Assembly (NCBI GenBank): GCA_018825365.1
Contig: JAHJEV010000001.1
Location: forward strand, 57,601 to 121,600
Direction: 5' to 3'
Source: Patescibacteria group bacterium
Lineage (GTDB): Bacteria > Patescibacteriota > WWE3 > UBA101185 > UBA10185
DNA length: 64,000 bases
The notes beneath the pieces were generated by a model. The model saw only the letters and a program-made list of their open reading frames with translations. It had not been told where the DNA came from and made no database searches. Positions 62,222-63,895 of the stretch are shown here, piece after piece. Made by a program: the position numbers and the translations under genes. How positions within the stretch are numbered: the first letter of the stretch is position 1; every line of letters begins with the position of its first letter.

Positions 62222-63895
62222 AAGAATTTGATCCTGGTTCAGGGTGAATGCTAGCGGCGTGCCTAAGGTATGCAAGTCGGATGTACTTTATGTACATGGC
62301 GAACGGCTGAGTAACACGTAGGAATCTACCCTCAAGTAAGGTATAACCCATCGAAAGATGGAATAATACCTTATGTGGTGGCAACACTAAAGATTTATCG
62401 CTTGGGGATGAGCCTGCGGCCTATCAGGTAGTTGGTGAGTTAAGAGCCCACCAAGCCTATGACGGGTAGCTGGTATCAGCGTATATCCAGCCAGAGGGGC
62501 ACTGAGACACGGGCCTCACCCCTACGGGGGGCAGCAATCGGGAATTTTGCGCAATGGGCGAAAGCCTGACGCAGCGACGCCGCGTGAAGGATGAATGCCT
62601 TCGGGTTGTAAACTTCTTATTAGCACCGGCTAACTACGTGCCAGCAGCAGCGGTCATACGTAGGGTGCAAGCATTACCCGGTCTTATTGGGCGTAAAGAG
62701 TTCTGTAGGCGGTTGAATAAGTTGGAAGTTAAATATCCCGGCTCAACCGGGAGGAGGCTTTCAATACTGTTTAACTTAGAGGTAACAAGGGGATAGCGGA
62801 ACACATGGTGTAGCAGTGAAATGCGTTGATATCATGTGGAACACCAAGGGGGAAGCCAGCTATCTGGGGTTATTCTGACGCTGAGAGACGAAAGCGTGGG
62901 GAGTAAAACGGATTAGATACCCGTGTAATCCACGCCGTAAACAATGCCTGCTAGATGCCCGACTTTTGTTGGGTGTCGAAGCTAACGCGTTAAGCAGGCC
63001 GCCTGGGAAGTACGGTCGCAAGATTAAAACTCAAAGGAATTGGCGGGGACCCGCACAAGCGGTGGAGCATGCTCTTTAATTGGCTGATAAACCGAGAACC
63101 TTACCAGGGTTTGACATGCATGAAGTAGAAACCTGAAAGGGGGACGACCGGTATCCAGTCCGGAACTTGCACAGGTGTTGCATGGCTGTCATCAGTTCGT
63201 ACCGTGAGGCGTACCCTTAAGTGGGTCAACGAACGCAACCCTTACTACCAGTTGTATCACTCTGGTGGAACTGCCTCGGCAACGAGGAGGAAGGTGGGGA
63301 CGATGTCAAGTCAGTATTGCTCTTACACTCTGGGCTAGAAGCATGCTACAATGGCCGGTACAGCGAGAAGCGAAATCGCGAGATGGAGCCAATCTTTAAA
63401 ACCGGTCTCAGTTCGGATTGGAGTCTGCAATTCGACTCCATGAAGTTGGAATCGCTAGTAATCGGCGGTCAGCTATACGCCGGTGAATACGTTCTCGGGT
63501 CTTGCACACACTGCCCGTCACGCCAGCAAAGCTGGGGCCACCCGAAGTCTCATTTTGAATGGGCTCAAGGTGGAATCAGTGATGAGGGTGAAGTCGTAAA
63601 TAGGAATGTTGCGACTTATGGAAGTAATTCCATAAAGAAATTCGGCTAATAACGGTGAAGTCCTACCAAAGGATAATACCGTGGGAAGTTTCTATTTTTA
63701 ATAGGTAACCCCGTATCGACTGAGTCTTTAACATCTGTTATAGACGAGATGTATCTTTATGAATAATAAAATACATAACACGCCGACTCCTCAAATAAGT
63801 TTTGAGGATGAAGATATAGTCAGCGCCATTAGTAATAATGGAACACGCGAACAAGGTAGCCGTAGGGGAATCTGCGGCTGGATCACCTCCTTTCT
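62222..63895 (+). rRNA. rrs: 16S ribosomal RNA (~1.67 kb, with a ~250-nt insertion near the 3' end)
   Basis: 5' AGAATTTGATCCTGGTTCAG. 530-loop GTGCCAGCAGCAGCGGTCATAC. 3' end GTAGGGGAATCTGCGGCTGGATCACCTCCTTTCT. The block 63600-63851 has no counterpart in canonical 16S. Confidence 0.9.

Follow-up and report, generated by a model that had tools for sequence, protein, structure and literature searches.

The 16S rRNA gene of a Patescibacteria group bacterium is interrupted close to its 3' end by a 252-nt insert that is most likely a group I intron. The gene lies on the + strand near the end of the 64-kb stretch of DNA analysed here (contig JAHJEV010000001.1; the whole stretch is called the window below), from 62216 to about 63893, and reads GAAGTCGT, then 252 nt (63598-63849), then AACAAGGTAGCC. 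We give a probability of about 90% to the reading that the insert is a group I intron located between E. coli positions U1498 and A1499 and belonging to the 16IS10 family of the Candidate Phyla Radiation (CPR), as a copy without a homing-endonuclease gene. Exon 1 ends in GGGTGAAGTCGT at 63597, the insert runs from AAATAGGAATG to GGAACACGCG, and the gene then continues as AACAAGGTAGCCGTAGGGGAATCTGCGGCTGGATCACCTCCTTTC (63850-63893); once the 252 nt are taken out, the universal GAAGUCGUAACAAGGUA is restored. By our own count on the E. coli sequence this position falls within the 1492R primer site, and the site shows GAAGUCGU at the end of exon 1, a final intron G and AACAAGG at the start of exon 2. 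An initial annotation, made from the letters of the window, had described an insert splitting the 16S 3' end within the 1492R site, with an upstream exon ending in U and an insert ending in G. Direct reading of the sequence confirms the split, and the phasing fits the helices P1 and P10, but the span given there, 63596-63855, extends 2 and 6 bases into the exons. Both the intron and exon 2 begin with AA, so the letters alone leave an uncertainty of 0-2 nt in the boundaries; the U.G pair of P1 and the terminal G fix them between 63597 and 63598 and between 63849 and 63850. The Rfam small subunit (SSU) model is misled by the insert, since its last 35 positions are pushed onto intron sequence and a false gene end is placed at 63634. 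The RF00177 alignment of the 3' part reaches GAAGUCGUAA. The true 3' end is at about 63893, and truncation of intron-bearing genes by rRNA pipelines is a known point. The gene holds this single intron, and removal of 63598-63849 leaves a mature 16S rRNA of 1426 nt.

The insert is neither a chance match nor an assembly artefact. The same 3.3 kb, with an identical 252-nt insert, recurs at 99.97% identity where the organism was assembled independently, in GCA_043824185.1 (contig JBDRTJ010000030.1) and in ENA ERZ27247117. Assemblies of the organism come from SRR2544004, SRR6514730 and ERZ27247117. The rRNA regions of metagenomes are often mis-assembled and two other contigs of the same organism break within the 16S gene, which could be taken to suggest that an unrelated intron was joined to the 16S gene of the window. 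Such a chimera is nevertheless so very unlikely as to be almost negligible, because the two independent assemblies agree and the internal guide of the insert is complementary to the exon of its own 16S gene.

The insert matches the Rfam group I intron model and folds into a complete group I core. With RF00028 (Intron_gpI) the insert reaches 55.1 bits, above the gathering score of 50 (E 3e-11 for the complete window), and the match at 63588-63842 spans all 253 model positions (1-253). No group II domain (D1-D4, D5/D6) was found at E <= 10 in an Rfam scan of 63450-64000, and the same Rfam library did detect group II domains in two other CPR 16S loci, L052 and L090. Other Rfam families were considered for the insert, with only the SSU model, group I and a chance miRNA match appearing at E <= 10. 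The unconstrained minimum free energy (MFE) fold has a z-score of -4.75 relative to shuffled sequences and yields P1, P2, P3, P4/P5, P6, P8, P9.0 and P9. P7, which crosses P3 to form a pseudoknot, was paired by hand (Table 1). An optional extension of P1 pairs A63598 and A63599 with U63610 and U63609.

Homologous inserts at the same position show that the proposed structure is held by compensatory changes. We scanned one genome per species for J8/7 followed, after a gap of 10-40 nt, by GAACAAGGTA and obtained at least 120 loci, at least about 109 of them being 16S 3' ends interrupted precisely between AAGTCGT and AACAAGGTA. Among the matches listed, insert lengths are bimodal, with 211-413 nt for copies without an open reading frame (ORF) and about 690-917 nt for copies with one. 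All 12 ORF-less homologues tested pass the RF00028 gathering score, at 56-82 bits. At 252 nt the window insert is thus not very small for a group I intron, contrary to what had been supposed, given a Rfam consensus of 253 positions and the lengths of its ORF-less relatives. In an alignment of 14 sequences, including CPR and non-CPR copies, the proposed structure has 84.8% of cells paired compared with 69.8% for shuffled columns and at most 44.7% when pairing partners are slid; both partners are changed in 29 of 52 pairs, and the observed covariation is not reached in any of 500 shuffles. P2, P3, P7 and P9.0 are 100% paired. None of the 14 homologues deviates at the U.G pair of P1 or at the four pairs beside it, and the guide motif GUUGCGAC is common to most homologues. 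G63718-C63821, next to the bulged C63717, is the candidate guanosine-binding pair, and this G-C is likewise invariant (14/14). P7 is closed by G-C in 13 sequences and by U-A in the window, where both partners have been exchanged. P4 alternates between CGGU/ACCG in CPR copies and GCUG/CAGC in actinobacterial copies and is fully compensatory; its apparent weakness in alignment A1 is due to a one-column shift introduced there by MAFFT between CPR and actinobacterial copies, which also blurred P8 and P9. The J8/7 motif GAUGAAGAUAUAGUC is nearly universal, its invariance in alignment A1 arising partly because the scan pattern demanded J8/7, and a G precedes AACAAGG in every homologue, as the pattern also demanded. 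Taken together, a score above the curated threshold, a complete core, covariation and a published site (PMC11270868) bear out the group I call of the initial annotation.

Table 1. Exons, probable intron and predicted group I core elements of the window 16S rRNA gene.
Feature	Position	Strand	Basis or remark
16S exon 1 (E. coli 1-1498), ending in U1498	62216..63597	+	Rfam RF00177, 1286.9 bits
Probable group I intron, 252 nt, without homing-endonuclease gene	63598..63849	+	RF00028, MFE fold, covariation
P1: exon AAGUCGU (63591-63597) with guide GCGACUU (63611-63617)	63591..63617	+	U63597.G63611 wobble at 5' splice site
P10 guide UGUU, with exon 2 start AACA (63850-63853)	63607..63610	+	Read directly
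P2 hairpin AUGGAA-GUAA-UUCCAU, GNRA loop	63618..63633	+	6/6 pairs compensatory, 100% of cells paired (14 sequences)
P3 5' strand UCGGC with GCCGA (63782-63786)	63642..63646	+	100% of cells paired, 4/5 pairs covary
P4 (ACGGU/ACCGU), A-rich J4/5 and J5/4, P5 (GUCCU/AGGAU, loop ACCAA)	63652..63682	+	MFE fold
P6 (GGG/CCC) and P6a hairpin	63683..63712	+	92.9% of cells paired
P7 5' strand U-(bulged C)-GACUG with UAGUCA (63817-63822)	63716..63722	+	Hand pairing; 100% of cells paired
Peripheral insert from P7 to J7/3, two hairpins (63724-63745, 63749-63776)	63723..63778	+	MFE fold
P8 hairpin UCCUCAAA-UAAGU-UUUGAGGA	63788..63808	+	5-nt loop; position of the LAGLIDADG ORF in relatives
J8/7 (UGAAGAUA) and P7 3' strand UAGUCA	63809..63822	+	Fits Rfam consensus UgAAGAUAUAGUC
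P9.0 (GCG 63823-63825 / CGC 63846-63848) around P9 (CCAUUA-GUAA-UAAUGG, 63826-63841)	63823..63848	+	3/3 P9.0 pairs covary, 100% paired
Omega-G, last intron nucleotide	63849..63849	+	Read directly
16S exon 2 (E. coli 1499 to 3' end)	63850..63893	+	Helix 45 (h45) with GGAA loop and anti-Shine-Dalgarno CACCUCCUU

From these elements we infer standard two-step group I splicing. In the precursor rRNA, P1 with its U1498.G wobble would form between the guide GUUGCGACUU and the end of exon 1, and a free guanosine held at the P7 G-C pair would attack the bond on the 3' side of U1498. Next, the terminal G (63849) would occupy the guanosine site while UGUU holds the start of exon 2 through P10, and the 3'-OH of U1498 would then join A1499, restoring GAAGUCGUAACAAGG of the decoding centre and releasing the 252-nt intron. 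Positions 1492-1500 of 16S rRNA, the strand between h44 and h45, constitute the decoding centre, and because of this location a ribosome that kept the 252-nt insert should not be functional.

Two other fates of the insert can be weighed against this evidence. CPR rRNAs are unusual in many ways, and the insert could be an expansion segment retained in mature 16S rRNA, the alternative named in the initial annotation. This is highly improbable, as it would break the decoding-centre strand between U1498 and A1499, leaves unexplained a complete group I core held by compensatory changes, and conflicts both with related 16S genes that have identical flanks and no insert and with the homing endonuclease found inside relatives' copies, which marks a mobile intron. 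Alternatively, the insert could be an intervening sequence of the RNase III type that is cut out without re-joining, splitting the 16S rRNA into 1-1498 and a piece of about 45 nt that would carry h45 and the anti-Shine-Dalgarno sequence. Bacterial 23S intervening sequences processed in this way are well known, also in CPR (PMC11270868), and this possibility is only slightly less remote. It is a defining feature of such elements that their ends pair with each other in a long stem, and no end-to-end stem appears in the MFE fold; the 5' end of the insert pairs instead with the exon in P1 and its 3' end sits in P9.0. Cutting without re-joining also does not explain the Rfam match or the conservation of the U.G pair, omega-G, P10, J8/7 and P7 across at least about 109 homologues.

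Some observations weigh against the assignment to an intact group I intron. The RF00028 score is only 5 bits over the threshold, and the model fits poorly both around P6 and at the 56-nt insert that separates P7 from the 3' strand of P3. The end pair of P7 is G.U, and its closing pair is U-A where the family has G-C, although the latter change is compensatory. With no LAGLIDADG protein encoded in it, the intron would lack any help from a maturase, and the group I intron of the Simkania 23S rRNA is reported as unspliced (reference 28 as cited in PMC11270868). The insert could be a decayed group I intron that does not self-splice, needing a trans-acting protein or residing in a dead 16S copy. 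Consistent with decay, the window copy lacks the endonuclease, a possible maturase, scores lower with Rfam than any other member tested (55 compared with 56-82 bits) and has the G.U end pair and U-A closing pair in P7. We consider decay unlikely, since none of the core helices is broken, the changes seen in P7, P8 and P9.0 preserve pairing, the exons are recognised as a complete 16S rRNA at 1287 bits, and the P7 variant is common to the introns of two relatives, L039 and L041.

The closest relatives carry the same intron core with an endonuclease gene. Among the matches listed, the 16S genes closest to that of the window are L039, from a WWE3 metagenome-assembled genome (MAG; JACPGI010000007.1), and L041, from a Patescibacteria MAG (JBBAAW010000001.1), each with 83% identity. 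Their introns are 786 and 800 nt long and match positions 1-130 and 199-252 of the window intron at 75-91%. All three introns share the insertion site, the guide GUGUUGCGACUU, a GUAA loop in P2, the P7 variant UCGACUG/UAGUCA, the P9 sequence CCAUUAGUAAUAAUGG and the position of the additional insert after P7. The P8 stem is kept among the window, L039 and L041 by compensatory changes, with C-G, G.U and A-U as the fifth pair and A-U, G-C and C-G as the seventh pair, respectively, and the same holds for P9.0 (GCG/CGC versus GUA/UAC). In contrast to the 5-nt loop of the window, L039 and L041 contain a LAGLIDADG-type ORF of about 0.55 kb in P8; a Pfam scan of the L039 ORF identifies it as LAGLIDADG_3 (PF14528, E 2e-9). 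The relatives' ORF starts after P7, reads through the 3' strand of P3 and the 5' strand of P8 (...ETPTPEI...), fills the P8 loop and stops in or just past J8/7, and in many copies the C-terminal RMKI and stop codon are encoded by AGGAUGAAGAUAUAG itself.

The window copy contains no comparable gene. An ORF search of the 252 nt found none above 38 aa that is contained entirely in the insert, in agreement with the initial annotation, which had noted the lack of a long ORF. An 86-codon frame from 63759 runs through the splice site, the 3' exon, h45 and the spacer and was judged spurious; it resembles endonuclease termini only where those are ribozyme core, and it was rejected as a gene. The two-hairpin insert from P7 to J7/3 is 56-83 nt long where present and is found only in the window, L039, L041 and L090, while the other aligned homologues proceed from GACUA straight to CAC. 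The two hairpins resemble P7.1/P7.2, a feature of subgroup IA, but have no conserved sequence and are missing from most relatives, so that those of the window look like a lineage-specific insert. In L039 the start codon of the endonuclease sits in this two-hairpin region. The window copy may therefore be either the survivor of an endonuclease loss or an ancestral gene-less form, with loss mildly favoured by the shared two-hairpin insert, which most of the family lacks and in which the L039 ORF begins. The window copy itself is probably immobile.

Intron-less counterparts of the gene also exist. A metagenome scan with the 17-mer GATGAGGGTGAAGTCGT was unspecific, with 115 of 120 listed matches in unrelated coding DNA, and recovered four intron-less 16S genes and one intron-bearing 16S gene. 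The four intron-less genes (L135, L156, L191 and L220; 84-87% identity) have an uninterrupted GAAGTCGTAACAAGG and 17-nt and 30-nt flanks identical to those of the window. Such patchy presence is what would be expected of a mobile intron. Some other CPR 16S genes differ in the content or number of their insertions. The S1498 intron of L116 (Levybacteria MFPH01000063.1) contains, at intron positions 246-608, an ORF of the 23S_rRNA_IVP family (PF05635, E 3.8e-29) instead of a LAGLIDADG endonuclease. Further insertions, among them group II domains (RF01998), are located upstream of the S1498 intron in L052 (6888-6971), L090 (4937-5023) and L087 (1728-2602), in agreement with the published position-1400 hot spot 16IS9 (PMC11270868).

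The window intron is a member of an already described kind. CPR rRNA insertions were surveyed with the same Rfam model by Tsurumaki, Sato, Saito and Kanai (2024, J Bacteriol, PMC11270868), who reported a hot spot, 16IS10, with group I introns at position 1498 that encode LAGLIDADG_2/3 proteins as well as shorter ORF-less versions at the same sites. Outside the ORF, versions with and without it show very high similarity; CPR rRNA insertions are stated to be removed from transcripts, and group I introns at 16IS10 had previously been unreported in known bacteria (PMC11270868). The window intron shares position 1498, the intron class and a CPR-type host with this family, and the published pairing of ORF-bearing and ORF-less versions mirrors the relation between the window and L039/L041. 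The LAGLIDADG_2/3 ORF found in part of the family is not present in the window copy, but as ORF-less members are described at 16IS10 (PMC11270868), the missing ORF is no bar to membership. The 56-nt two-hairpin insert between P7 and the 3' strand of P3 does distinguish the window intron from most members. In every tested respect the window intron fits the 16IS10 description and is real but of an already described kind. The window copy is probably absent from the published data set, which the GenBank assembly carrying it seems to postdate. The best 16S matches among those listed, which are WWE3 and Patescibacteria MAGs (83%), the 530-loop signature and the 1426-nt 16S rRNA together indicate that the host likely belongs to the CPR.

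Group I introns of similar location or size are known from other systems. Giant sulfur bacteria reportedly carry 16S group I introns that were shown to splice and that block standard PCR primers. These are likewise group I introns within a bacterial 16S gene, but their hosts are Gammaproteobacteria. The introns of Azoarcus tRNA-Ile and cyanobacterial tRNA-Leu are about 200-250 nt long, contain no ORF, interrupt tRNA anticodon loops and belong to subgroup IC3. The window intron is similarly compact and ORF-less, with short P2 and P9 hairpins capped by GNRA loops for which tertiary contacts are probable; it differs from them in its host gene, theirs being a tRNA.

The 16S gene of the window has additional features that affect its detection by PCR. 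The 530 loop reads GTGCCAGCAGCAGCGGTCATAC at 62638. The initial annotation had correctly noted this variant, yet it is not peculiar to this gene, as the reading GCCAGCAGCAGCGGTCATAC is common to the WWE3-like relatives L039, L041, L084 and L115 and is thus a clade signature. The insert splits the 1492R site into 7 and 12 nt, and the 515F site has two mismatches, one of them beside the primer's 3' end. It is reasonable to expect from these sites that the window 16S gene escapes 515F/1492R surveys. Evasion of 16S primers by CPR bacteria is already well known. The window 16S rRNA is also strongly reduced, with 52 model positions (about E. coli 436-487) replaced by 2 nt around 62618-62620 and further 5'-domain helices shortened, in keeping with descriptions of small ribosomes in CPR.

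The rRNA genes of the window organism appear to be unlinked. No 23S rRNA or tRNA follows the 16S gene in the regions covered (63894-64000 of the window and 6218-7323 of L121), where the next genes encode a NUDIX hydrolase and a HAD-family protein, and no tRNA was found in the 64-kb window. In the WWE3 relative L039, 16S, tRNAs and 23S are located in one region. The gene just upstream of the 16S gene (60677-61999, + strand) encodes a 440 aa protein with BpsA_C (PF01861) and AdoMet_dc (PF02675) matches, which suggests a fused polyamine-synthesis enzyme. An RrnaAD/rsmA-type gene is indeed encoded in the window (29958-30728, + strand; Pfam PF00398, E 6e-48), as had been pointed out in connection with the insert. 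Located 33 kb away, it appears incidental, and no support was found for a functional link between rsmA and the intron.

Introns at the same site are also found in genomes with non-CPR labels. About 50 of the approximately 109 matches listed carry such labels and share the site S1498, the core and the guide GUUGCGAC. The labels comprise Solirubrobacterales, Acidimicrobiales, other Actinomycetota, Dormibacterota, Chloroflexi/Anaerolineae, ANGP1 and Omnitrophota, and the carriers include L017, L036, L020, L027, L040, L076, L085 and at least about 40 further loci. Hosts labelled Solirubrobacterales, Acidimicrobiales and Dormibacterota comprise contigs of Mb scale as well as complete chromosomes. 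Complete long-read chromosomes of 3-5 Mb are among the hosts, and contigs labelled Chloroflexi/Anaerolineae are smaller. In L017 (OY970282.1, a 3.83 Mb chromosome), the 16S rRNA scores 1518 bits and the intron 71.6 bits, with a 23S gene alongside. In the literature searched we found no description of 16S group I introns in these non-CPR phyla. That a single S1498 intron family reaches beyond the CPR, as a pattern both real and not yet described, is a tentative proposal to which we give odds somewhat short of even.

A separate set of MAGs is labelled 'uncultured Gammaproteobacteria' or 'Pseudomonadales' and has 16S exons identical or nearly identical to those of Daviesbacteria/Microgenomates (L001, L011, L021, L023, L029, L030, L043, L049, L050, L053, L080, L095, L096, L109 and others). 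These are TPA 'binchicken' and SRP co-assembly MAGs; L023 and L016, for example, have the same 5' exon. Their Gammaproteobacteria and Pseudomonadales labels look wrong, and the genomes are probably CPR, judging from the exons.

The window 16S gene illustrates how CPR bacteria escape PCR with the 1492R primer and, in this case, with 515F as well. If the S1498 family does extend beyond the CPR, LAGLIDADG homing would have carried it between phyla repeatedly, into a 16S site that is conserved universally, and 16S introns and failure of the 1492R primer would be common in ordinary soil bacteria. The abundance of S1498 introns in long-read soil genomes of Actinomycetota and Dormibacterota could bear on bias in amplicon surveys and on the spread of homing introns between phyla.

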